DNA of 64,000 nucleotides, from positions 13,369 through 77,368 of the forward strand of contig JBAVUO010000074.1 in NCBI GenBank assembly GCA_049696815.1, given 5' to 3'. This DNA comes from Terriglobales bacterium (GTDB taxonomy: Bacteria; Acidobacteriota; Terriglobia; Terriglobales; Acidobacteriaceae). The notes beneath the pieces are model-generated. The model did not search any database, was not told where the DNA came from, and worked only from the letters and a program-made list of their open reading frames with translations. The position numbers and the translations under genes were made by a program. Position 1 is the first letter of the stretch. Each line of letters begins with the position of its first letter. Positions 1-53,906 of the stretch are shown piece by piece.

Positions 1-770
1 ATGTCGCGGCCCTTCTGAATCAGGTCTTCGATGGTGTCGCGGTGATAAATGCGAACCACGTCCTGCTCGATGATGGGGCCGTCGTCCAGAACCTGGGTAA
101 CGTAGTGCGCGGTGGCGCCGATCAGCTTGACGCCGCGCTGAAACGCCTGATGGTAGGGCCGCGATCCGATGAAGGCGGGAAGAAACGAGTGGTGAATGTT
201 GATGAGGCTCTGCGCGCCCAAGGTGGCAATGAACTCGTCCGAGAGCACCTGCATGTAGCGCGCCAGGACGACCAGATTGCACTGGTGCTCGCGGAGAAGA
301 GCGGTCTGCTGCCACTCGGCCTCCCTTTTGTTTTCTTTTGTGACCGGCACGACAAAGTAGGGGACGCGGTAGAAGTCGGCAATGCGCTGGTTGTCAGGAT
401 GGTTGGAGATGACGAGCGGGATCTCGCACTTGAGCTCGCCGCTCTGGTGGCGGTAGAGCAAGTCCACCAGGCAGTGGTCGTACTTGGAAACGAAGATGGC
501 CATGCGCGGGCGGTCGGTGGAGCGGGCCAGGCGCCAGTCCATCTGGAAGTCGCGGGCGAGGGGAGCAAAGTGCTGGGGGAAATCGGAAAGATCGAAATCA
601 AAATCGGCCGCGTCGAACTCAACCCGCGTGAGGAAGAGATTGGATGCCTCGTCTCCGTGCTCGTCATTGAACAGAATGTTGCCGTTGTGGCGGAAAATGA
701 AATCGGCGACCGAGGCGACGACGCCCTTGCGGTCGGGGCAGGAGACCAGGAGGATGGCGGAGTTGCGCAT
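1..770 (-). CDS. purU: formyltetrahydrofolate deformylase (C-terminal end runs off the window)
   Basis: Absent from the ORF track because it has no stop inside the window. Reverse-strand translation from ATG at 768-770 gives MRNSAILLVSCPDRKGVVASVADFIFRHNGNILFNDEHGDE (ACT domain). Further on it reads INIHHSFLPAFIGSRPYHQAFQRGVKLIGATAHYVTQVLDDGPIIEQDVVRIYHRDTIEDLIQKGRD, the PurU formyltransferase core. The listed + ORF 42..776 is its antisense shadow. Confidence 0.9.
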   Translation of the reverse strand, partial: MRNSAILLVSCPDRKGVVASVADFIFRHNGNILFNDEHGDEASNLFLTRVEFDAADFDFDLSDFPQHFAPLARDFQMDWRLARSTDRPRMAIFVSKYDHCLVDLLYRHQSGELKCEIPLVISNHPDNQRIADFYRVPYFVVPVTKENKREAEWQQTALLREHQCNLVVLARYMQVLSDEFIATLGAQSLINIHHSFLPAFIGSRPYHQAFQRGVKLIGATAHYVTQVLDDGPIIEQDVVRIYHRDTIEDLIQKGRD

Positions 771-783
771 AGGTGACTGGTCT

Positions 784-8157: not shown

Positions 8158-9381
8158 TTACGGTGTGAGCTGAAATACGATGCCTTGGCCTCCGGTGCCG
8201 CCGACGGGGGTTGTGCCGTAGAGATTGCCTGCCTGGTCGAGCGTCAATCCGTAGTTGGGGCTGGAGCCGTCCCGGCCCTTGCCGAAGAAGTGGACGATTC
8301 GCTCCTTCCAATTGCCGTGGGAGAGAGTCAGTCTGAACACCGTGCCACAGTCGCAGGACGGGCGGCCCCCGGTCGAAGTGGTGCCATAGAGACTTCCTGC
8401 CGCGTTGAAGACGAGGGTGGTCGTGGGGAAGCTTCCGTCGGTGCCGCCCTGGAAACTATAAAGCACGTTTTCCTGCCACGTGCCGTTCGGGCCTGGAATC
8501 AGCTGGAAGACAGCGCCCATCCCACTTGTGCCGCCAAAATAAGTTGTGCCGTAGAGATTGCCCGCCGCGTCAAGAATCAATCCACCGTAGGGATTCGCGG
8601 CATCCGGCGTGCCTTTGAAGTCGTAAAGCGCAGTCGTCTTCCATCCGCCGCTCGGCGTCGGAGACAGCTTGTACACGGCGCCGGCTCCATGGGTTCCGCC
8701 GATTTCGGTGACGCCATAGAGATTTCCGGCCGCGTCGAAGAGCAGTAAACCGAGTGAGCCGACGGCCCCATCTTTGCCGCCGGTAAAGGCGTGGATCACT
8801 CTATACCGCCAGCCCTGCGCAGTCGGAGAGAGTTCGAAAACCACGCCGGCTGAATGCTTACCGCCGTCCGGGGCTGTGCCGAAGAGATTGCCGGCGCTGT
8901 CGAAGACCAGCCCGCCACCGGGGCCGAAGCCGTCGTTGAGGCCCTGGAAACTGTAGAGCGTGGTTTCGGTCCAGCCACCGCCCGACGGCGACAATTTAAA
9001 AACAACACCACAACCGTCGCCAGCGCAGAACCCGCCGAATCCGCCCGCGACCGTGGTGCCGTAGAGATTCCCGGCGCTATCGAGCGTGACGCCGCCGTGG
9101 GGATCCAAGCCGTCGCCACCGCCGGTGAAGCTATAGAGCACGGTCTCCTCGCCCGAGGGCGTGAGCATGAAAACTGTGCCAAAGTCGAAATCGCCCCCCG
9201 CCGCGGTCGTACCGTAAGCATTTCCCGCACTGTCAAGAGTCAATGGAGTCGCGGGGTCGCCGCCGTCCGTGCCTCCGGTGAAGTTGTAAAGCTTTTTATA
9301 GGTCGCTGCCCAGGAGGAGTTTGCGAGAATGGCGGCGAGGGCAAAAGCCGCACCAGCCCTGCTGATGAATTTGTTCTTCAT
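8158..9381 (-). CDS. secreted GloVer tandem-repeat (choice-of-anchor type) beta-propeller-like protein
   Basis: Signal peptide MKNKFISRAGAAFALAAILANSSWA. It is followed by about 7 repeats of LYSFxGGxDGxxPxxGLxxDxAGNLYGTTxxGGxxGxGxVFxLxP. Confidence 0.8.
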   Translation of the reverse strand: MKNKFISRAGAAFALAAILANSSWAATYKKLYNFTGGTDGGDPATPLTLDSAGNAYGTTAAGGDFDFGTVFMLTPSGEETVLYSFTGGGDGLDPHGGVTLDSAGNLYGTTVAGGFGGFCAGDGCGVVFKLSPSGGGWTETTLYSFQGLNDGFGPGGGLVFDSAGNLFGTAPDGGKHSAGVVFELSPTAQGWRYRVIHAFTGGKDGAVGSLGLLLFDAAGNLYGVTEIGGTHGAGAVYKLSPTPSGGWKTTALYDFKGTPDAANPYGGLILDAAGNLYGTTYFGGTSGMGAVFQLIPGPNGTWQENVLYSFQGGTDGSFPTTTLVFNAAGSLYGTTSTGGRPSCDCGTVFRLTLSHGNWKERIVHFFGKGRDGSSPNYGLTLDQAGNLYGTTPVGGTGGQGIVFQLTP

Positions 9382-13013: not shown

Positions 13014-13739
13014 TCACTGGTCGCGCTTGCGTAGGATGACGTCGCCTTCGGCAGGCGGCAGGGAGAAGGGAAACTCCCAGTAGTTGTCTTTCGTTTTCAC
13101 GCGGAGAATGAAGTCTTCCCGGCTCTTCCAGGGGCCAATCCACTTGTTTTGGCTGCCGAAGAAGACCCACCCGTGCACTTCTGGATTGCCGGGTGTCAGG
13201 ATGGCTTCCTGGAGACTCTGCGTACTGATGAATTCGATGAACTCGGAAACTTCCTTCTGGTATTCGCGCGCGTAGGCGGTCTTTTCCCCGGCCTTCTCGG
13301 GATGCTTCTTGATCTCGCGCTCAGTGTCGAAAACGAGCGTATCGATATCGTTCTGCATTCTGGTGGAGAACTCGTCAGGATCGAGATAGCCCTCGGCGAC
13401 GTTGTGATGCCGGACAAATTGCATGCGCAAACCGGCGGGAAATTCAAATTTGTCGTGCCCGGTGTAAGTGACGGACAGGTACACGCCAAGGGGGTGATAA
13501 AGGCGATGGCGGCTCTTCGTTAATTCCTGGGAATCCACGATGAGAGTCATGTCCACATCGCCCTCGGTCATACGCCAGCGGTAGCGGCCGTCGTTTCCGC
13601 GCTGGAACTCGCAATTTGGAGCACCGGCACGCCAGCGTATCGTGTTCGACGGCTCCTTGGGGCACTGGCTCTGGGGTACCACCAGAACCAAGCAGAGCAG
13701 GGAACCGCAAATCTTCGGGAATTGACGGAAACTCCACAT
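13014..13739 (-). CDS. hypothetical secreted protein
   Basis: 241 aa with an N-terminal hydrophobic signal (ICGSLLCLVLVVPQSQC) and balanced K/E/D/F/Y composition unlike GC shadow ORFs. Confidence 0.7.
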   Translation of the reverse strand: MWSFRQFPKICGSLLCLVLVVPQSQCPKEPSNTIRWRAGAPNCEFQRGNDGRYRWRMTEGDVDMTLIVDSQELTKSRHRLYHPLGVYLSVTYTGHDKFEFPAGLRMQFVRHHNVAEGYLDPDEFSTRMQNDIDTLVFDTEREIKKHPEKAGEKTAYAREYQKEVSEFIEFISTQSLQEAILTPGNPEVHGWVFFGSQNKWIGPWKSREDFILRVKTKDNYWEFPFSLPPAEGDVILRKRDQ

Positions 13740-13958: not shown

Positions 13959-15371
13959 TCAGGCCGGCTCGCCGCGCAGCAAGATCTGAATCAGCAACAG
14001 CCACCGCCGGACGTTGGTGGTCATGAGGAAGTTTTCCTTTACATGCTCGTGGCCGTTCCGGCCAAGCTGGGCGGCAAAGTCGGGATGGGTCAGCAGATAG
14101 CGGATCTGATACGCGCATCCCTCGACCGAATGCACCAGCGCACCGGTCAGCTTATGGATGATCTGGTTTGGAATGCCCCCGACGGCGCCGGCGATGGTCG
14201 GCTTGCCCTTCCAGAGAGCCTCGGTGACGGTGAGCCCAAAGCCCTCCTTAATGGATTTCTGCACGACCAGTGTCGAAGCGCGTTGCAAGGCATTGATTTC
14301 CAGCGCGCACCACGGCGGCAGGTCGAGAATGATGATGTCGGGATCGTTGCCGGCCGCCTCCTGGACTTCTTTTAGAACTATCGCTCCCTCCGGATCGTCG
14401 CTCGCTCCGCCCCCGGCCAGCACCAGTTGGCAATCCACATATTTTCTGGCCAGCTTGAAGGCCTGGACCACTCCCACCGGATCCTTCAACCGGTCGAAAC
14501 GTGAAACCTGGGTCACGATGGGCCGATGGCGATTGATTCCGAATTCGTCGCACACCTTCTGAACCAGGCTGTCTTCGAGTTCCTTGTTCTTTTCCGAGAG
14601 CGGATCGATGCACGGGTAGACCAGATACTGAGGGACCGGCAACTGGCGGGCAAACGACTGCGAGGAAAAGATTGCAGCGTCATATTGTTCGATGAAGGGC
14701 CGCAGAAAACCCCACACTTGGGGGTGGGGATTGGATAAGTCGATGTGGCAGCGCCACGCCCAGCGTGACCTTCCCTGGCGCGCACGAATGAGCGCCGCAG
14801 GCTGCGGGTCATGGATCACAACCACATCTTCCGGAAACTGCATGCGCTGGCGGTTTTGCTCGTTGTACATCAGGAAGATTTCCTGCGCCTGCCGCGTCAG
14901 TTCGTAGTTGCTGCCGTGCAGCGCGTTGTGAAAGGCCTTGGTCACTTCGAAAAAGTCGTTTCCTCCGGTAATGACGTCCCAGTGTGTCGCGACCTCCAGT
15001 TCGCTCAGCAACGGGACCAGCCGGTTCAGCATCTCGGCAACTCCTCCGCCCACCGCCGTGGAGCTGACCATCTTTACGGTTTTTCCCTGGAGCTCACGGG
15101 CGAGGAAGCGCAACTCTTCGATTTCGGCTGCACCCACAATTGCTTGATAGTCATCCAGGTGGGGCGGCGGAACCGGCGCCGGGGGAGTCTCCCAGGGCCG
15201 GGGCAGTTTCCGCCGTTCCGGCCGGAGCGGCACGACCTGGGAGGACGTCGCGGGCTGGTCCGATGGAATCTCGGGCGCTCCCCGGCCGCTGTCTCTGGTT
15301 GGCTGCTTCATTGGTTCCATGGTTTGCTCACCACCGGCTCGTCTTGACCGTTCCTTACGATTAGCCCCCAC
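13959..15371 (-). CDS. treT: GT4 glycosyltransferase, trehalose glycosyltransferring synthase (TreT)-like, with a disordered N-terminal extension of about 85 aa
   Basis: The blocks STAVGGGVAEMLNRLVPLL, VVIHDPQPAALI, WAWRCHIDLSNPHPQVW, IDPLSEKNKEL, IVTQVSRFDRLKDP, ASDDPEG and QKSIKEGFGLTVTEALWKGKPTIAGAVGGI match archaeal/bacterial TreT as I remember it. It is the last gene of the trehalose operon. Confidence 0.7.
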   Translation of the reverse strand: MGANRKERSRRAGGEQTMEPMKQPTRDSGRGAPEIPSDQPATSSQVVPLRPERRKLPRPWETPPAPVPPPHLDDYQAIVGAAEIEELRFLARELQGKTVKMVSSTAVGGGVAEMLNRLVPLLSELEVATHWDVITGGNDFFEVTKAFHNALHGSNYELTRQAQEIFLMYNEQNRQRMQFPEDVVVIHDPQPAALIRARQGRSRWAWRCHIDLSNPHPQVWGFLRPFIEQYDAAIFSSQSFARQLPVPQYLVYPCIDPLSEKNKELEDSLVQKVCDEFGINRHRPIVTQVSRFDRLKDPVGVVQAFKLARKYVDCQLVLAGGGASDDPEGAIVLKEVQEAAGNDPDIIILDLPPWCALEINALQRASTLVVQKSIKEGFGLTVTEALWKGKPTIAGAVGGIPNQIIHKLTGALVHSVEGCAYQIRYLLTHPDFAAQLGRNGHEHVKENFLMTTNVRRWLLLIQILLRGEPA

Positions 15372-16051
15372 TACGTCAGCGCCCGTTCCACGACCCGCAC
15401 AATTTGCCCGCGAACATCTTCCAGCGTTGCCGTGTAGATGTCGATCCGGTTCAAGGCACGGGCGGTCTCGGTCAACCCCACATCCTCATGCAGCCATTGC
15501 GAGAAATCGTTGGACATGAGCTTGAGCCGCAGCCGCGCCTCGATGAAATGATGATGAATGGAATGCAAGCTCACGTGCCTGAGTCCCTCGGCGAACTCAT
15601 GCATCGTGTTGGCCACAAAGCTGGTGGGCACCACGACCGAGTCGGAAGCGCAAAAATAGAACGTCTCGTCTGCGATTCGTTTGCCAGCTTCCGGATTGCG
15701 TTGGAGATATTTCTCCAGGATCTGGATGATTCGGTCGCGCAGCTCGGGCACCGACGTGAACTCGCGAACGTCGACGCTAGCCAGCCGCTCGGCCAGGCTC
15801 GGCTCATTGCACGCCGAAAGCGCCCAGTGCGCAAAGTCATTGGAGAAGCCCTCGCGCAGAAAGTGATGCTCCTCAAGGGTGCGGAATGTGTGCTGGAAGA
15901 TGGAGTCGTCGGGGCATTCCCGCAACGCATCCAGCAACTCCGAGAGCGTATTTGCGCGCTGCCGGGTGATGCGCAGAAGGTGCGCCGACGTATTGAAATA
16001 GAATGGCTTCGCCGGTGTGCGTTGGAGAGTTGGTGCCACTGCGCTGGTCAT
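15371..16051 (-). CDS. conserved hypothetical protein with internal duplication (possibly DUF5752-like)
   Basis: 226 aa. Two homologous halves each begin F(Y)F and contain a ..NDF(A/S)xW(A/L).. block. Its start overlaps the otsB stop by 4 nt, and its stop overlaps the GT4 start. Confidence 0.7.
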   Translation of the reverse strand: MTSAVAPTLQRTPAKPFYFNTSAHLLRITRQRANTLSELLDALRECPDDSIFQHTFRTLEEHHFLREGFSNDFAHWALSACNEPSLAERLASVDVREFTSVPELRDRIIQILEKYLQRNPEAGKRIADETFYFCASDSVVVPTSFVANTMHEFAEGLRHVSLHSIHHHFIEARLRLKLMSNDFSQWLHEDVGLTETARALNRIDIYTATLEDVRGQIVRVVERALT

Positions 16052-16875
16052 CGGTTCACCGCTACGGCGGCCGCAGCGCCAGATTCATCTCGCCGGCGGC
16101 AGGCCTGGAGCCACTGGGTCAGAAAGTCGAGCAGTTCTTCGGGCGGCTGAAGCCACAACTGGGCCGCGGTTTCCCGCCACTGCGGACGCACGAGCACGCT
16201 CAAGCCCCGGCCATGAATAGCCTGGAATGCGGGTTCGTCCGTGTTATCGTCGCCCAGATAAGCTGCGGGCGTGTCCCGATCCATTTCCTGCAAGAGAGCG
16301 CGGACCGCGTCGCCCTTGTCGGCATGGGGCGGACGGATTTCGACGCCACCGTCGAATTCCAACAGGTCGAGGCCAAAGCGCTCGGCGACGGGCATCCAGC
16401 CCAGCAGCACCCGGCCCCGGACCGCCTCCGCCTCACACTCACCCAGTCCTCGCCAATGGACTGCTATGCTTCCCGTCTTGAACTCTGCCGCGCGTCGCAG
16501 CCCCTGGTACTCCAGCCAGTGGTCGGCGACCGATAAGGCCTCGGGAATGTGCTCATCCAGTTCGGGAATCTCCGCGCTCCCGTTGGGCTTGAGCCGCTGC
16601 AAACCGTGCAGTCCCCAGACCTCCGGACAGGGTTGAATGCCCAGCAGCGAAATGGCGTCGCTCACATCGCGTCCCGAGATGATGACCACGCGTGTCCGGC
16701 CGTTGCGCACAATCTCCTGCAGAACTGCGGCCACTCCGGGATACGGTAAGGCCCGGTCTCGCTCCGTGCGGAATGGCGCCAGCGTCCCGTCGTAGTCGAG
16801 CAGCAGCAGGGATCGGGACGCCTGCGCGACAGTTTTCACAAGCGACTCAACCTGCGGTTGCGCGTCTGGTCTCAA
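16048..16875 (-). CDS. otsB: trehalose-6-phosphate phosphatase
   Basis: HAD motifs LLLDYDGTLAP, ISGR and KGDAVRALL..YLGDDNTDEPAF. Confidence 0.85.
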   Translation of the reverse strand: MRPDAQPQVESLVKTVAQASRSLLLLDYDGTLAPFRTERDRALPYPGVAAVLQEIVRNGRTRVVIISGRDVSDAISLLGIQPCPEVWGLHGLQRLKPNGSAEIPELDEHIPEALSVADHWLEYQGLRRAAEFKTGSIAVHWRGLGECEAEAVRGRVLLGWMPVAERFGLDLLEFDGGVEIRPPHADKGDAVRALLQEMDRDTPAAYLGDDNTDEPAFQAIHGRGLSVLVRPQWRETAAQLWLQPPEELLDFLTQWLQACRRRDESGAAAAVAVNR

Positions 16876-16905
16876 TACCTCATCCTATCTCTACCGTTCG
16901 GCCGA

Positions 16906-19197
16906 TCAGGCGACGGACGCGCCCGCCCGAGGCTTCTCTTCCGCGTCCTCGGCTGCATCCAGCCGGACCTCGCAGAGTTCCGCGATCAGGTTTCCGGCCC
17001 AGCGATAGATGTTGTGTTCTTTGATGATCCTACGCATCCGCTGCACGCGTAACTGCTTTTCTTCCGGTTCCATCTCCAGCGCCACCCGGATGGCTTCCGC
17101 GGTCTGATCAATGTCGTAGGGGTTTACCAGCAGAGCATCCCGCAGTTCGCGCGCTGCCCCAGTGAACTTGCTCAGGATGAGCACGCCGCTTTCATCCCGG
17201 CGCGCAGCCAGGAACTCCTTGGCGACGAGGTTCATGCCATCGTGCAACGAGGTCACCAGGCAAAGGTCGGCTGCCCGATAGTAGGGATTGATCTCTTTGT
17301 GACTGTGCTGCCGTTTCAGGAAGACGATGGGCTTCCACTTGCCCGCCTGAAAGCGCCAGTTGATTCGATCCGCTTCGGCTTCCACCTCTGTCAATAGATC
17401 GTGATAGCGTTTGATGTGAGTGCGGCTAGGCGCTCCAATCTGGACGAAGGTAAATTTCCCCTGATACGAGGGATACTTTTCCAGAAAGCGCTCAATCGCC
17501 AGGAAGCGCTCCAGGATTCCTTTCGTGTAGTCCACCCGGTCAACGCCGATCCCCATGAACGTGGCCTCTGTGCCCAGGCTGCGCAGGAGAGCAGCTCGCT
17601 CCAGGTAGCCGAGTCCATGGTTGTTGTCTTTTCCAGATTCATCGTCGGTAAGGTCCACGCTGATAGGGAAAGGGCGGACCAGGGTGCGATGGTCCTTCCG
17701 CAGCACCGAAAAGTGCTCCCAGTCAACGCGTGATTCCACCACCCGGTCCACCGTCTGCAAGAAATTATTGCAGTGGGACTGGATGTGGAACCCGATGAGG
17801 TCCGCGCCCAGCAGGCCGTCCACCAACTGTCGCTGCCACGGGCAGATGCCGAAGGCTTCCGGGTTGGGCCAGGGGATATGCCAGAAAATGGCGACGCGCG
17901 CGTCCGGCCGTTTCTCTTTGATCAGCCGGGGCAGCAACGCGAAGTGGTAGTCCTGAGCCAAGACCACCGGCCTGGGTATATCTTCGATTTCCGTGAGCAG
18001 CGCTTTAGTGAACTTGCGGTTGACCTCCTGGTAGTGCTGCCAGTCATCCGCCCGAAATATGGGGCGGGTATGCGCGATGTGACAGAGTGGCCAAAGGCCC
18101 TCGTTGGCAAACCCGTAGTAATAGCCTTCTTCCTCCTGCTTGCTCAGCCATACCCGGCGCAAGGTGTAGTGGGGATCATCGGGTGGCACACGGAGGCGAT
18201 CATGCGCGTCGACGACTTCGGCGTCGGCGTCTCCGTTGCCGTGGGCGATCCAGGTGCCGTCGCAGGCGTTGAGGACCGGCTCCAGGGCGGTTACCAGGCC
18301 GCTGGGCGGCACGACCACTTGGGGCGACTTCCCATTTCGCTGATGCATGTAAGGCTGGCGATTCGACACCACAAAGAGGCGGCTCCCCTGCAGCCGGGTC
18401 CGGACTTGCACCGAGAGCCGGTCGGCCGTCCACATGGACTCGCCCGCCTCCCGCAAGCGAGCTTCGTTTTCCGCGGCGCTGCGAGCCTGGCTGAGACTCT
18501 CGGCCATGGTAGCGACTTCCCGCGCCAGCGGCCGGAACAAGTCAAGATCGGGCATTTCCTGGCGTGAAGAAATTCTTCCCGTTCGGAGGCCATGCATCCA
18601 TTGCGCGGCGCGCGCAATGGGTCCGGCGATGCTCCAGCGTATGATCAACAGCGTGATGAGAACGATGAGCAGAACCTGAACCAGGACCCGCACAAACGTC
18701 TCCCGCCACGTGCGCAGGCTCTGCGCCCGGATATAGCCCACCTCGTGTACCACCGCCAGGCCACCTACGACTTCGTCCTGGCGGCGCAGAGGCAACGCGA
18801 GAATGTGTACCGGTTCTCTGCCCAGCCGGACAAACGAACCTACCCCGTGACCTTCCGCGATGGCCTGGGTGACCACGTCAGGGCTCGCCGTGAGCGTCTT
18901 CCCCAGTGCCGGGGTCATCGCCACCAGGGCGCCTTGCCGGTCGTAAACGGCGACCCCAAGCAGGTGCCCGCTGTTGCCGAAGCGCTGCACCAGTTGTTGC
19001 AGCCCCCGTTCCGATCCTGCCTCCCACGACTTCTCGACATTGCCGGCCAGACTTTCGCCGAGCATCTCGGCCCGCCGTTCCAGGTCACTGCGCAGACCAC
19101 GCTTCTCTCTCACAACCTGGTAGTACGAGAAACTCAGAGAGACCAGCGTGATACCGAGAATGAGGGACACCATGAGCCGAACACTCAATAAGCGCAT
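16906..19197 (-). CDS. otsA: trehalose-6-phosphate synthase (GT20) fused to an N-terminal TM-sensor-TM-HAMP module
   Basis: C-terminal 480 aa: [52 protein letters not shown] and [12 protein letters not shown] (GT20). N-terminal 280 aa: two TM helices flanking a segment of about 145 aa, then a HAMP-like linker. Confidence 0.9.
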
Positions 19198-29094: not shown

Positions 29095-30024
29095 ATGGCC
29101 ACTGGTGAGCGTGCCTTGAATCCAGAGATTCCAAAGTCTCCAAATCCGGCTGCCGATCAAGGCGGGAGTCTCCGCGACAACCCCGAGATCGATGAGTTCT
29201 TCCACCGGCTGCCGTCGAACCTGCGCCGGCCAAAGCCGAGTGCCGAGGCGGTCGCGGCTGCCGTGGAAGCCATTCAGCGGCTGGCGGGAGGTGCGGACCA
29301 GGAGCCGCGTACGGCGGCCACGCGCCAGTTCACCCCCGGTACCTGCATGGGATGCGGGCAGCCGCTGGGAGAGGGAACGCGGTTTTGCGGGCATTGCGGT
29401 ATGCCGATCGCGGGCGCGACACAACCGGCCGCAGCGGGCCAGCACCACTACCACCATCACTACCATCATTTCATCCCAGCGCAGACTGGTTCGGGCCGTG
29501 GGCCCGCCGAAGCTGAACTCAGCCTTCCCCGCGGCCGTGCTGCTGCGGCCGGGACGGGCAGCGCCGCCGGTAGCCGCGCCGAGAACGCCGTCCGCCAGTT
29601 GGTCCAGGACTGGGCCCAGGGGTGCAACACCAGGCATCTCGATGACGTGCTGGAACTCTACGCTCCCGATGCCACGCTGGTCCGGGCCAATGTGGCCCCG
29701 GTGCGCAGCGTGCCCGCCATCCGCGAATTCCTCTTTGCCCTGCTCGAGGCCGGACTCGGAGACGTGGAAATGGAGTCTCTGCGGACCGAAGTCTTCGGCG
29801 AGATCGCGTTTGATATGGGACGCTCGAAGATGCTGGTGCCGGTGGCGATGGGCAAGCGACGCGAGGAGCGGGGCAAATACCTGGTGGTGATGGCCCGTCA
29901 ACCGGCGGGACACTGGAAGATCATTGCCGATTGCTGGTCGACCGACCTGAGCGTCAGCGGTCCGGCAGCGGTGGAACCGGTCCGCAAGCCGGGCGATGCC
30001 GGCGGCGCCAGGAAGACGCGCTGA
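29095..30024 (+). CDS. zinc-ribbon + His/Tyr-rich linker + NTF2-like (SnoaL/DUF4440-type) domain protein
   Basis: CMGCGQPLGEGTRFCGHCGMP (zinc ribbon), QHHYHHHYHHF, and C-terminal NAVRQLVQDWAQGCNTRHLDDVLELYAPDATL...GHWKIIADCW. The track start is 29077 (TTG). The - ORF 28888..29913 is a shadow. Confidence 0.7.
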   Translation: MATGERALNPEIPKSPNPAADQGGSLRDNPEIDEFFHRLPSNLRRPKPSAEAVAAAVEAIQRLAGGADQEPRTAATRQFTPGTCMGCGQPLGEGTRFCGHCGMPIAGATQPAAAGQHHYHHHYHHFIPAQTGSGRGPAEAELSLPRGRAAAAGTGSAAGSRAENAVRQLVQDWAQGCNTRHLDDVLELYAPDATLVRANVAPVRSVPAIREFLFALLEAGLGDVEMESLRTEVFGEIAFDMGRSKMLVPVAMGKRREERGKYLVVMARQPAGHWKIIADCWSTDLSVSGPAAVEPVRKPGDAGGARKTR

Positions 30025-30028
30025 GCCG

Positions 30029-31246
30029 TCAGTGGTTGTACACGGTTGTCTGCGGGTGATAATTCCGCCAGTCGAACCAGTAATCTTTCAGAACAGCGAT
30101 CTTCTCCAGACATTGTCCGGCGGCGGGACCGGCCACGGCGCATCCCTGAAAATTCCAGGTATTTCCTCCCGCGTCGATCAGTTGCCACTGCGGGCTTTGC
30201 TGGTCGCGGTAGAGTTCGATCTCCGAACCATTCAGCTGCGACCGAAACACGCGCACCGATTCGCCATCCGGCCCGGCCACCAGCACAACGGGAACGCCCG
30301 CCACCCTGTCGTGGACCGGACTCTGCGAGCGCACGCGCTCGAGAGGGAAGGCACGGGCCCGCTCGCCCATTTCCAGCCCGAGGACGATGTCGCGATCGGC
30401 AAGACCTTGCCCCGGGAAACTCAGAGGAACCGGCAACCTGGCGACCTCCTTTTCCCACTCGCTGTCGTAGTCTTTTTCGTGCCCGGTGACCGGCGCGAGC
30501 ACCATGCCGCGCGGCGACTCCGATTTCCACAGGGCGAAGGTCAATTCGTCACTCGCCACCGGCTCGAGCACCGTGCCGGCGAGCGGCCCGGAGATTGCCC
30601 GCCCGGTCACCTGCTGCCACCAGGAGCCGGTTTCGCGATCGCGCATCAGGAAGTTCTGGTTGTTGATGCCGGCGAGATAGAAATGCAGGCCCCGCCGCAT
30701 CGCTGTTCTGTTCCACACCAGACCGGTGTGACAGAGGGTTCAATAGGTGACGACAATCGGCACGCCTCCCACCGTGTCGTTCAATACGTGGTGGTAGGCC
30801 ATCTGCCGAATGGGATAAGCGCGCGCCTCCGGCCCAAAGCGCACCGTCATCACCATCTCCGGGTCGCCGAGGTCAGCATCGGTGGCGGCCAGGAACCCCG
30901 CTGCCGGAATCGGGCGAAACATCCATTCAAAGTAGTTCAACCGCACCATGACGGCGGCGCCCGCGCTCAGCAGGATCGCCAGCACTAACCCCGCCCTGCC
31001 AGCCCACGAGGACCTGCGCCACAGACCCGAGCCCAGAACCAGCACGCCTCCAAGAGTGGCCAGCGTGAGCAGCGGCGCGGCCCATTTGATGGCAATAGCC
31101 AGCGACAGAGCCGCTGGGGACTGGTATTGGAACGGCCGGATAATCACCGCCGGAACTAGAAACAAGCCCACGCCGACGATCGTCAGCAGGACAATCGGCA
31201 ACCAGCGCACGTAGTTCCGCCCATTCGAGACAGCCATGCGAGGCAC
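30029..31246 (-). CDS. DUF3179-domain membrane protein with one in-frame TGA at codon 169 (candidate selenocysteine, UxxC)
   Basis: Track ORFs 30740..31246 and 30029..30718 are in the same frame, giving 406 codons in total. The junction reads ..GGVPIVVTY-[TGA]-TLCHTGLVWNRT.., where DUF3179 proteins have ..VTYCPLCG... The N-terminus has three TM helices. Confidence 0.6.
30707..30735 (-). promoter_or_regulatory. SECIS-like stem-loop immediately 3' of the in-frame UGA
   Basis: The mRNA reads UGA-ACCC-UCUGU-CACACC-GGUCU-GGUGUG-GA-ACAGA. This gives 11 bp of stem with a GA bulge and a 5-nt apical loop that starts GG, about 15 nt after the UGA. Confidence 0.5.
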
Positions 31247-31423: not shown

Positions 31424-32521
31424 ATGGACTTGCGGGTTCTGGTAGTGTGCCCGGATCAAGACGCAGCCGATTTGCTGAGCCAGATCCTGTCTGAGGTGGG
31501 CATAGAGGCCGAACACACCGCCTCGATCACCCGCGGACTCGAGCGGATGGAAGAGCAGCATTTCGACGCTATCATCCTGGATTACAGGGCGGACCAGAGT
31601 TCGCAGGACTTCCTCGCCAAGTTGCGCCTTTCCAGCAACAACCGCAACACACTGCTCATTGCCATTATCGATGACGAGTACAGCGCCCGCCCGGTCTTCG
31701 GTCTGGGCGCAAACTTCGTTCTTTACCGGCCGCTCTCCGTAGAGCGCACGCGGCTCAGCCTGCGGGCGGCACGCGGCCTGATGCGTCGCGAACGCCGCCG
31801 CGGCCCCAGGATTCCCATCAATGCCCAGGCGAGTTTCGACTCGGCCGGCGCCGAGAACCAGCGCGCCACCCTTCTCGACCTCAGCGACGGAGGAACTGCG
31901 TTACGCAGCGATCCCCTGGTTCCTCCCAGGTGCAAGGTTTACTTTCAGTTCGCTCTTCCCGGCCAGCAGCAACTCGTGCGCCTCTCCGGCGAGGTGGCTT
32001 GGCAGGACGCGAATGGCCGGACCGGAATCCGCTTTGTAGATGTGCCCCAGGCCTCGCGCCGCCTGATCCATGACTGGCTCATGCAGAACAGCTTCAAGGC
32101 CCGACCGGAGCCCGGCCAGCGGCCCGCGCCGGTGGTCCCGCCCGCCGACGGGACAAGACCCGAGCCGAGTCTTATCTCCAATGCCGGCAATCGCCGCGGC
32201 GAGCGTCGTTTCGCGTGCAAGCTCGGCGCGGAGGTTTACCGTCTCGGCGTCAAAGTGCCCAATCGCTGCACGCTTTCCGATGTCAGCGAGGGCGGATGCT
32301 ATGTCGAGATGCCGTCCCCGTTCGCCGCACAAAGCGGGGTTGAGATCGTGGTCCGAACCGCCGACATGAGGGTGAAGATTCAGGGACAGGTTCTAGCCGT
32401 CCATCGCGGATTCGGCATGGGGGTGCGTTTCATCTTCCGCGATGCGGCGGAGCGCGAAGAGGTTCTGCGCCTGCTGGCCATGATTGCCGCCGGTCCCTCT
32501 CTTGACGAACTGCCGCGCTAG
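31424..32521 (+). CDS. receiver-like (REC) domain protein with two PilZ domains
   Basis: N-terminal CheY-like fold (FDAIILDY) followed by two PilZ signatures: RRGPRIPI...[11 protein letters not shown] and RRGERRFAC...[11 protein letters not shown]. Confidence 0.85.
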
Positions 32522-42506: not shown

Positions 42507-45500
42507 CTACTGCACGATCAGGGTGACCGGATTGGAAAGCGTGACCGAGTTATCGGCCGCGCTCACGATGATGTTGCTGTATGTTCCGGGGATCGTCGCC
42601 GGGCTGAGCGTCTCCATGGCCGAACCCGACTTCGTCGCGTCCGCCTGGGCGGTTGCTGTAATGGTGACCGAAGCCGGCAGCCCCGGAGCCACGGTTGGAG
42701 CCGTGTACACGCCGTTGGCGTCAATCGTGCCGTTCGCGGCACCGCCCACGACCGCCCAGTTCACTGCCTGGTTGGCGGAGTTGTTGACCGTCGCCGTAAA
42801 CTGCGCAGTTTGAGCGGGCCAGCCGTCAGCCGCGTCGTTTGGAAACAGACTTGAAGGCTCTCCTGCCATGAGGGCCACGGTCACCGAAATCGAGGGCGGT
42901 GGCGGCGGGCTTGAGCTTCCCCCTCCACCTCCACAGGCTACCAGCAGGCCAAGAAGTGTCAGAGAGACGCACAGGACATCCACAGCATGCTGCCGGCGCA
43001 TTCTCCGCCCCATAACTCCGACCACCAGCCCGCCGGCAATCGGCGCTGTGAGCGGCAGCCAGGGATTGCGATTGCCTGCCCGGCGGCTCAGTGGTCCGAT
43101 GCCCGGGTTGGGGCCGGTGGTCGAGATGGTGATTGCGACGGGCTGGGCCCCGGCGGTGCCAATTGGGATGGAGGGCGGATTGAAACTGCAATGGGTTAAT
43201 GCAGGGAGACTGGCGCACCCAAATGTCACGTTGCTGGCGAAAGTTGGCCCGGAAGGCGTGGCCGTGAAGCTATAGCTCAGCGAAACCTGTCCGGCGAGCA
43301 CTTGGTGCGAACCTCCGCCGGTCCACTGGAAATCCGGAGCCGTCACCTGCACCGTGAAGCTCTGAGTCTTGGCGCCTTCTCCCGCCGTGGCCGCCGAGAT
43401 GGTCACCGGGTAGCTGCCCACCGGCGTGCTGGGGGCGGCGTTCACGGTTGTGCTCACCGTGGCGCTCGGGTTGGCCGGGTTCAAAGTGATCTGCGACGAC
43501 GGCGCGAAATTGCAGCTCGCTCCCGACGGGAGACCGGCGCTACAACTCAGAGATACCGAGCCGTTGAACACACCGAGCGAGCCCAGTTGGTACTGGGTCG
43601 CGTCCGAGGTCCCGCCCGGCTCCACGGAAACCGTTGCCGGATTGGGCGTCCCCATGCTGAAGTCGGTGACGTTCAGGGTGACGGAGAAATCGTGAGTGAG
43701 AGTGCCGGCTGTACCATGGATGTTGAAGTTGTAGTTGGCGATCACCGCCCCGGAGTTCAACGAGACGCTGAAAGGCGCTCCGCCCGGCGTCGGCGTGATG
43801 GAATTGCTTGGGGAAAAAGTGCACGGCGCGGGTGTCGTCCCCGTGCAGCTCAGGGTCACCGGGCTGGCGTAGCCGGAGATTGCGGTCAGCGTTCCGTTAA
43901 GGGTCACAGTATGGTTCTGTAGGACCGTCTGCGGCGTGTTCGAAATCGCAATCTGGTAATCGGGCGCCGTGGCCAGGGTGTATTCCCAGATGCCGCGACC
44001 ATAGGTCGAAACGCGAAGCTTTTTCGTGCCCGCGTGATTGAACAGCCGGATCGCCGTTACCGGCACGTTGGGCAGATATCCAGCTTGCCCGCTGCCCGGC
44101 GTCGGCCCGACTTCGGTCCAGCTCGGACTGGACGTCGGGCTGACAAACATTCCCACGTCAGTTCCGGCGTAGACCTGACCCGCTTGCGAATCCACCAGCA
44201 GGGCGTTGACGGGCGCATCGGGCAGTCCGCCGGCCACGGAACCGAAGGACGACCAACTCGTGCCTGCATTCGTGGTTTTCCAAATGTGAGTGCCAGCATT
44301 GCCGACGAACCCCATGATGCCGACGTACGCCGTCTGCCCGGTCGAATCTGTGTTGTCAATTGCCACTGAAGAGATCGTGTAATGCGACGGATTGATACTG
44401 CCGGTGACTGGCGACATCTTTCCGACCGCCGTCGTGACCCAGACCTCGCCACCGTCTGGAGCCGAGGCCAATGGCCCCGTGCCGGTGGTTGTGGCGTAAA
44501 TGACCTTCGACAAATGGCTGGTCGGATCCACGGGTCCACCGGCCGCCAGGCCTCTTGCCAGGTCAGTCTCACCCCCCGTGCAGGGTACGCCAGTATTGTC
44601 GAAGCTCCAGCTGTTCAACGGAGTAAACCCTGTGCCACTCGTCGTACCCTACCAGACCCGGCATGTCCCGACCAGCAGTTCAGTGGAATTCTGGGGGTCG
44701 AGGATGTACGGGGTGTAGAAGGGGCCCTCATCCCCGCCTATGGTGGCGTTGTCTACGACCAGGCTGAAGGCAGGCCCGTTACAGTTCACCCCTTGCTCAC
44801 ATACCTGAATGCTCACATAGGTGTTGGCCGTGAACCATTCGTTGGGATGATTGACCTGGTCGGGGTTGATGATGTTGTAGCCCCCGTCGCCTCCATTTGC
44901 GCTTGCCCAGGATTGGCTGGTCGTCGCCGAGCCCGTCTTGGGAGAGCCATTATCCTGGGTGCCGCCGAGCACGTTGTCTTGGTTGCTCGGGTCCACGGAA
45001 AAAGACACGAATTGGGTCATCGAACCGAGCGTCTGGTTGAGACTGTCGAATCCGTTGCTTCCCGGAGTGCAGCTGCCGCTGGTCAGCTTGGTGAACGCGT
45101 CCAGCGTCCTGTAGATCCCGCCGTCGTTCGCGAAATACCCGATCGCCTTACCGCTGGCCACCATGAACGCGATCGCATGTTCGTCAGGGTGGACGCGCGC
45201 GGGAGCGCCCAGCGGATTACAACCGTAAACGTGGGTGAGGTTGATCCAGTTTGCCGAGGATGAGCACGCACTGGCGCCACTCGGCAGCGAGCACTTCCAA
45301 AGGTTCACCGCTCCGGCGTAGAGGTCGGTTCCCGAACCATTGGGGACGGCCCCGAGTTCCAGGTTGTAGAAACCCTGCTGCACGCCGCAGCCACTATGTC
45401 CGGGCCCGAAGGCGTTGTCGCCGCAGTTGGTGATGCCGCTGTTCGCCGGATTCTCAATCAGGCGCCAGCTGCTCCCGCCATTCACACTCTGGTAAATTCC

Positions 45501-52949: not shown

Positions 52950-53906
52950 ATGGCACGAAACTTCAAGGAGTTATCGGAACGCGAGATTCTGGCGCTGGCG
53001 GTTTCGCTGGAAGAGGAAGATGGGCGCATCTATGCCGATTTCGCCGACGGCTTGCGCGAAGACTATCCGGCCACCGCGAAACTGTTCGAGGAGATGCGCG
53101 AAGAGGAGTCGGGACACCGCGCCGCGCTGATTCAGACCTACCGCGAGCGCTTTGGCGAGCACATTCCGCTGATCCGGCGGCAGGACGTGAAGGGATTCGT
53201 GCAGCGGCGTCCGTTCTGGCTGACGCGTCCGCTGAAGATCGCTGAAGTGCGCAAGCAGGCCGAGATCATGGAGCTGGAGACGCGCCGGTTCTACCAGAAG
53301 GCCATCACCCAGGTGAGCGATGCTGGCATTCGCAAGCTGTTAGGAGACTTAGAGGAGGTGGAGCGCAAACACCAGGTGGCGGCCGAAGCGCTGGAGGCGG
53401 AGATTACGCCCGATGTGGAGAAGTCGGAAGAAGAAGCACAGCGCAGGCTGTTTGTGCTGCAGATTGTGCAGCCCGGGCTGGCCGGGCTGATGGATGGCTC
53501 GGTTTCGACTCTGGCCCCGGTGTTTGCGGCGGCGTTCGCGACCAAGAGCAGTCACGACGCTTTCCTGGTTGGACTGGCCGCGTCGATCGGCGCGGGCATT
53601 TCGATGGCGTTCGCCGAGGCGCTCTCCGATGACGGGTCGCTGACGGGCCGAGGGCGTCCCGTGCTGCGGGGCGCGGTCACTGGATTAATGACGACTGCCG
53701 GCGGGATTGGCCACACGCTGCCGTTCCTGATCCCTGATTTTCACGTTGCGTTCATCGCTGCCGTCATCATCGTTGCACTGGAGTTGGGAGCAATTGCGTG
53801 GATCCGGAACCGTTACATGGATACGCCGCTGCTCTCGGCGGCGTTTCAGGTGGTGGTCGGAGGGGTGCTGGTATTTATCGCGGGGATATGGATTGGGAGC
53901 TCGTAG
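52950..53906 (+). CDS. VIT1/CCC1-family iron transporter with N-terminal ferritin-like (erythrin) domain
   Basis: [34 protein letters not shown] (di-iron helices) followed by [36 protein letters not shown] (VIT). Confidence 0.85.

Follow-up and report, generated by a model that had tools for sequence, protein, structure and literature searches.

Analysis of the window (the whole 64,000-nt stretch of DNA that was investigated) indicated that the minus-strand segment 31237..30029 very probably (about 0.9) represents one functional gene, which encodes a 402-residue membrane-anchored DUF3179 protein and in which codon 166, a UGA, specifies selenocysteine (Sec). Comparison with related sequences strongly supported the Sec reading of this TGA.

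Translation of the minus strand from 31246 to 30029 gave 406 codons with the TGA at 30742..30740 as the sole internal stop, and the peptide at the junction read ...GGVPIVVTY*TLCHTGLVWNRTAMRRGLHFYLAGINNQNFLM.... In the open reading frame listing, the two pieces appeared as 30740..31246 (168 aa) and 30029..30718 (229 aa), each with a GTG start; the GTG opening the 229-aa piece was the Val codon of the conserved LVW and lay inside the hairpin described below. The first-pass annotation had described one frame of 406 codons broken by this TGA alone, and a second ORF whose GTG start sits within conserved sequence, and the retranslation agreed with it. The ATG at 31237..31235, with AAGGGG 8 nt upstream, was the likelier start of the gene. 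From this ATG the product had 402 residues, with Sec at residue 166 and the stop TGA at 30031..30029.

Pfam analysis of the joined protein, with U written as C, revealed a match to PF11376 (DUF3179) with E=2.3e-63 and 214.8 bits over residues 117-397, as had been proposed from the sequence at first reading. The match spanned positions 14-292 of the 292 positions of the profile, whose cut-off (gathering threshold) is 27 bits. NCBIfam gave no match for the joined DUF3179 protein. Among the coding pairs of the 64-kb window that could be joined across an in-frame TGA, the DUF3179 pair was the only credible one, and the other pairs were all rejected as shadow frames. An ORF of 330 residues on the plus strand (29996..30988) lay antisense to the DUF3179 gene and outranked both of its halves in a naive longest-ORF choice; it was rejected as a gene and regarded as a shadow frame of the GC-rich gene. 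The coordinates of the features are listed in Table 1.

Table 1. Features of the window and of two related loci, with the basis of each assignment
Feature	Position	Strand	Basis
Full-length DUF3179 gene, very probably encoding a selenoprotein	30029..31237	-	single frame with one internal TGA; PF11376; tblastn matches span the TGA unbroken in 80 genomes
In-frame TGA, strongly supported as Sec (U166), first position of UxxC (U166-T-L-C169)	30740..30742	-	TGA/Cys column comparison
Predicted N-terminal membrane anchor of three hydrophobic helices	30938..31201	-	Kyte-Doolittle scan and positive-inside count; three long helices in the P0119 AlphaFold model
DUF3179 domain, residues 117-397, two related halves	30047..30889	-	Pfam match; invariant columns; internal repeat
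SECIS-like hairpin UCUGU-CACACC / loop GGUCU (30724..30720) / GGUGUG-(GA bulge)-ACAGA	30707..30735	-	minimum-free-energy fold and conservation
PilZ-domain gene, divergent from the DUF3179 gene	31424..32521	+	
Exception region of locus L050	L050:9545-9620		aligned codon check
Repositioned hairpin of locus L077	L077:10496-10543		RNA fold

The full-length homologue P0119 (423 residues, 46% identity over 376) read VTYCTLCHTGLVW at the junction. A search with P0119 against 1.84 billion cluster representatives (50%-identity clusters) yielded 8,983 relatives. Among the best 150 of these 8,983, the TGA column was covered by 127 representatives, with Cys in 120, Ser in 4 and Asp in 2, and the second Cys of the CxxC was as conserved as the TGA column in the same 127. 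This tabulation bore out the earlier proposal that the TGA takes the place of the first Cys of a CxxC motif and gives UxxC. The remaining 23 of the best 150 representatives started 8-20 residues past the column (one at 40), which is the signature of gene calls truncated where the Sec codon was taken as a stop. Invariance across 80 full-length members was limited to the two Cys (C185 and C188 of P0119), one Asp, one Trp and one Gly. On the window protein these corresponded to U/C166, C169, D200, W207 and G217, and H149 was nearly invariant. The conserved T-[YFW]-C-x-x-C block of DUF3179 was present in the window protein as VTY-U-TL-C.

A scan of one genome per GTDB species revealed 80 loci with 49-72% protein identity, almost all of them from metagenome-assembled genomes (MAGs) of Terriglobia/Acidobacteriota from soil and peat; two of the loci that carried the gene, L005 and L011, lay on the chromosomes OY970199.1 and OY970064.1. 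TGA was found at the aligned codon in 79 of these 80 species-level loci, and the frame stayed open for 115-307 codons before it and 235-289 after it, in agreement with the earlier statement that the interruption is not what random decay would produce. The closest 118 database proteins (66-100% identity) were, every one, C-terminal fragments of 223-247 residues. In L050, the sole locus without TGA, the codon was AGA, G had changed to T in the hairpin loop (Gly to Cys), and a stop followed 23 codons further on; L050 looks like a truly decayed copy or a mis-assembled or poor assembly. A Logan assembly (L081) showed 100% identity over 20.7 kb and possibly came from the same sample as the window. 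Five loci labelled Deferrimicrobiaceae, Binatus, Aquilonibacter, Binatia and Verrucomicrobiia (L029, L053, L055, L073 and L074, respectively) carried the same gene with TGA. Their TGA and their upper-helix and loop nucleotides were identical to the Terriglobia consensus, which suggests mis-binned contigs or recent transfer.

The first reading had also placed a SECIS-like hairpin directly after the TGA. This was upheld by comparison: synonymous sites over the hairpin were frozen only in the TGA clade. The conserved upper helix CACACC/GGUGUG began 9 nt past the UGA, and the GGUCU loop lay 19-23 nt from it. The folding energy of the hairpin was unexceptional against shuffled GC-rich sequence (z = -0.1 to -1.2), so that thermodynamics alone gave no support and the case for the hairpin is comparative only. 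Rfam, searched with gathering thresholds for the whole window and with permissive settings for 30500..30900, returned tRNA-Lys and noise and no SECIS family. In the 80 TGA-bearing sequences (79 loci and the window), the stretch TAT TGA ACG CTC TGT CAC ACC GGT CTG GTG TGG was almost invariant in its nucleotides. The codon entropy of this Sec clade at T5, G6, L7 and V8 past the TGA was 0-0.1 bit, while 64 other conserved columns of at least four-fold degeneracy in the same genes had a mean of 1.63 bit and a minimum of 0.85 bit.

Since the upper helix was invariant, no classical compensatory covariation was on offer. The lower stem differed among species, with varying pairing registers. Locus L077 was the only Sec-clade sequence with two helix changes: the synonymous changes ACC to ACG and GTG to GTC broke the usual helix, and a new 7-bp stem, CGGGUCU/GGACCCG, placed an unchanged GGUCU loop 5 nt farther along from the UGA. 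Judged from its predicted fold, this would be a natural repositioning of the SECIS apex.

As a control, 80 metagenome loci related to P0119 were analyzed. All 80 had TGC or TGT at the codon within the same peptide, YCTLCHTGLVW, and their corresponding codons varied freely (1.0-2.4 bit). The hairpin was mostly missing from the minimum-energy folds of this Cys clade, and the mean hairpin energy was -13.3 kcal/mol in the Sec clade and -9.3 kcal/mol in the Cys clade (Mann-Whitney p=2e-12). The P0119-type Cys DUF3179 of Terriglobia thus shared the three-helix anchor and the motif YCTLCHTGLVW with the Sec form, but differed from it in the TGC/TGT codon, the free synonymous sites and the lack of a conserved hairpin. 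The constraint at the RNA level tracked the TGA, which is the pattern expected of a SECIS element. A neighbour-joining tree built on the domain placed 80 Sec and 64 distinct Cys sequences in reciprocally monophyletic groups. The tree would fit a single switch between Cys and Sec, and is only indicative because the Sec and Cys samples came from different queries.

The hairpin was compared with the SECIS of E. coli fdhF as read from the K-12 genome, whose apex is GCA-GGUC-UGC and whose GGUC lies at nt 22, counted from the UGA. Both are in-coding hairpins just 3' of the UGA that carry GGUC in the apical loop. The window hairpin differed in having GGUC at nt 19, one codon (three bases) nearer the UGA, and in its other stem sequence, its 5-nt loop and the absence of an obvious bulged U. 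If the fdhF model applies, the hairpin 9 nt past the UGA would bind SelB carrying Sec-tRNA(Sec), and SelB would hand the Sec-tRNA(Sec) to the ribosome paused on the UGA. On this analogy we infer SelB dependence and selenium incorporation at U166.

Genes for the decoding machinery were sought in the same DNA. No selA, selB or selD was found in the 64-kb window by Pfam on predicted ORFs and by recorded gene families, and Pfam on 30 ORFs outside 21-40 kb, together with called-gene families at 20-40.7 kb, revealed no Sec machinery and no other selenoproteins. ARAGORN found no tRNA-Sec in the window or in the 80 genome loci; the only tRNA of the window was one for Lys. The E. coli SelA, SelB and SelD proteins had no tblastn matches in the window and all fetched loci (2.04 Mb), a depth at which chance alone predicts finding nothing. 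Acidobacteria were reported with selenoproteins in 2006, in the form of 3 families and 4 proteins (PMC1794560).

Three other readings of the TGA were weighed against these data. In favour of a genuine stop, either in a decaying pseudogene or through a sequencing or assembly error for TGC or TGT, the locus is called as two products, of 165 and 223 residues, and L050, with its AGA, loop change and later stop, shows that decay does happen. Nevertheless, the identical TGA stood in 79 assemblies of distinct species with both flanks open, the protein was conserved on both sides, and the downstream synonymous sites were frozen in the TGA clade only; an error is further opposed by the full identity of the L081 assembly, though it is perhaps from the same sample. 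A genuine stop is therefore extremely unlikely, and cross-species conservation effectively refutes it. It is also extremely unlikely that the locus holds two genes, with a 165-residue membrane protein ending at the TGA and the 223-229 C-terminal residues made separately from a downstream GTG or ATG. Start codons do occur soon after the TGA (GTG 30718 and ATG 30700), and hundreds of such "C-terminal" proteins are present in databases. However, the split would sever one compact domain at its invariant CxxC, the candidate starts shifted among relatives from 8 to 40 residues past the column, the frame across the TGA was always kept, and full-length Cys forms were the rule in the family.

The third reading accepts that the UGA is read through, with a product other than Sec: a tRNA-Sec-like tRNA(Cys), together with a SelB paralogue, would insert Cys, or an acidobacterial allo-tRNA suppressor would read the codon. 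Allo-tRNAs with a possible nonsense-suppressor function are known in Acidobacteria (Mukai et al. 2016, PMC5389517), and the canonical sel genes were not seen in the 2.04 Mb of window and loci. A non-canonical route of UGA decoding in Acidobacteriota is a rather unlikely proposal. The selC* tRNA(Cys) and SelB*, on the other hand, were reported from Firmicutes, Thermodesulfobacteriota, Nitrospirae and Proteobacteria, not from Acidobacteria (PMC5389517). TGA was also the commonest ordinary stop among the predicted ORFs of the window (21 of 48), which indicates that UGA is not globally reassigned. A general suppressor, moreover, would leave the position-specific, fdhF-like frozen hairpin unexplained, and decoding of the UGA as something other than Sec is accordingly considered very unlikely. 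Decoding as Sec is the reading followed below.

Hydropathy analysis of the protein showed three hydrophobic segments, at about residues 13-34, 52-73 and 83-100; basic residues occurred N-terminally as well as in the stretch that separates segments 2 and 3. By the positive-inside rule, the N-terminus is predicted to lie inside, followed by three transmembrane helices and, on the outside of the membrane, the DUF3179 domain. Given this charge distribution, the topology proposed in the first-pass annotation, with three membrane helices and the UxxC domain outside the cytoplasm, is plausible.

The AlphaFold model of P0119, built from 80 homologues, was confident (pLDDT 94.7) and showed three long helices and, after them, two beta-rich halves; the CxxC occupied a beta-hairpin turn between two strands, approximately 16 residues after the conserved His. 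The N-terminal half of the DUF3179 domain could be aligned with the C-terminal half, which lies about 470 nt downstream, with 22-29% identity (tblastn second matches in all 80 loci), and these alignments indicate that the domain is an internal duplication. Gly stood opposite the Sec/Cys column in the second half, so the CxxC was kept in the first half only.

Foldseek analysis of the modelled DUF3179 against the PDB gave weak matches, nearly all of them Rieske domains, with a best E of 0.014; PetC3 (5cxm) reached a TM-score of 0.63 only when the score was normalised to its 99 residues. The likeness to Rieske domains (PetC3 5cxm and the alpha subunits of Rieske oxygenases) was weak and consisted of a beta-rich fold with a Cys motif on a hairpin turn. 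Unlike Rieske proteins, the window protein had no CxH...CxxH and no PF00355 match; its motif was H-x16-U/C-x-x-C. The hhalign comparison with the Rieske oxygenase encoded in the window itself gave a probability of 0.3%. Membership of the Rieske [2Fe-2S] group was therefore rejected at the sequence level. The family profile, run against PDB sequences, gave no relevant match. Across the family, the second Cys was followed by R (46), H (27), N (18) or others, and the Sec clade had U/C-T-L-C-H; since this His was not conserved in the family, a haem-c reading (CxxCH) was also rejected.

U166 and C169 presumably form the active centre. They could act as a redox-active selenenylsulfide or selenol-thiol pair, or as a selenolate/thiolate metal site with His149 and Asp200. 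A metal site made up of Sec/Cys, His149 and Asp200 in an outward-facing, distantly Rieske-like domain is a tentative and rather unlikely proposal. If it were true, the protein would be an extracytoplasmic selenoprotein that is anchored in the membrane and uses selenolate as a metal ligand, kept across most of a large soil and peat Terriglobia clade and possibly the most widespread selenoprotein of these bacteria.

The first-pass annotation had put the gene forward as a candidate new selenoprotein, and this claim of novelty fell. The entry "DUF3179 domain-containing protein, pfam11376, UxxC/T" is present in the selenoprotein tables of two reviews from the Zhang laboratory, PMC9312934 (2022) and PMC13188914 (2026), both of which credit Zhang & Gladyshev 2007 and the metagenome of the Olavius algarvensis delta-1 symbiont. 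Judging from the row order of the review tables, DUF3179 is probably one of the unnamed "OS_HP" families of Zhang & Gladyshev 2007. As the family is already catalogued, neither a new selenoprotein family nor a new recoding mechanism is revealed here, and the result is an acidobacterial addition and a correction of annotation. The window gene and the catalogued DUF3179 selenoproteins had in common the Pfam family, one Sec in place of the first Cys of the CxxC and a SECIS-like hairpin directly downstream. The catalogued examples, among which MBW1804167.1 and MDJ0986319.1 are listed, originate from a deltaproteobacterial symbiont of marine origin and from unnamed MAGs, whereas the window gene falls in a large clade of Terriglobia (Acidobacteriota) from soil and peat that is apparently monophyletic and has a near-invariant SECIS. 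In the searchable literature on selenocysteine with Terriglobia or Sulfotelmatobacter, no mention of this Terriglobia clade or its frozen SECIS was found.

Hundreds of acidobacterial assemblies in public databases carry this gene as two fragments annotated "hypothetical" or "DUF3179", and annotation pipelines will go on splitting it because NCBIfam is without a model. One lineage of soil and peat Acidobacteria thus appears to retain a Sec form of DUF3179 with a nearly unchanging SECIS, while its sister lineage has Cys in the same peptide. The two would offer a clean natural Sec/Cys pair for probing the contribution of selenium to a CxxC protein that is probably extracytoplasmic.

The Sec-form DUF3179 gene was monocistronic and lay near the divergent PilZ gene and sugar-nucleotide genes. 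A PilZ match was present in 62 of the 80 related loci, at variable distance and often several kb further off; it adjoined the DUF3179 gene in the Sulfotelmatobacter-type loci L162 and L163. The Cys-form P0119 had MarR and DinB_2 genes upstream on the same strand (L167:6917-9272), which gives a hint of a setting in thiol or oxidative stress not shared by the Sec form. The gene neighbourhoods of the Sec and Cys forms gave no functional lead. Elsewhere in the window, four sizeable ORFs, 42510..44618 (-), 8161..9381 (-), 13017..13739 (-) and 42..773 (+), one of them of 703 residues, had coding-like GC3 and no Pfam match at E<=1e-4. A trehalose synthesis cluster at 13962..19197 (-) comprised a TreT-like glycosyltransferase, a DUF5752 protein, a trehalose-phosphatase and a GT20 trehalose-6-phosphate synthase of 763 residues. 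The 318-residue ORF at 52950..53903 (+) combined a rubrerythrin domain with a membrane domain of the VIT1 (vacuolar iron transporter-like) type in one fusion protein.
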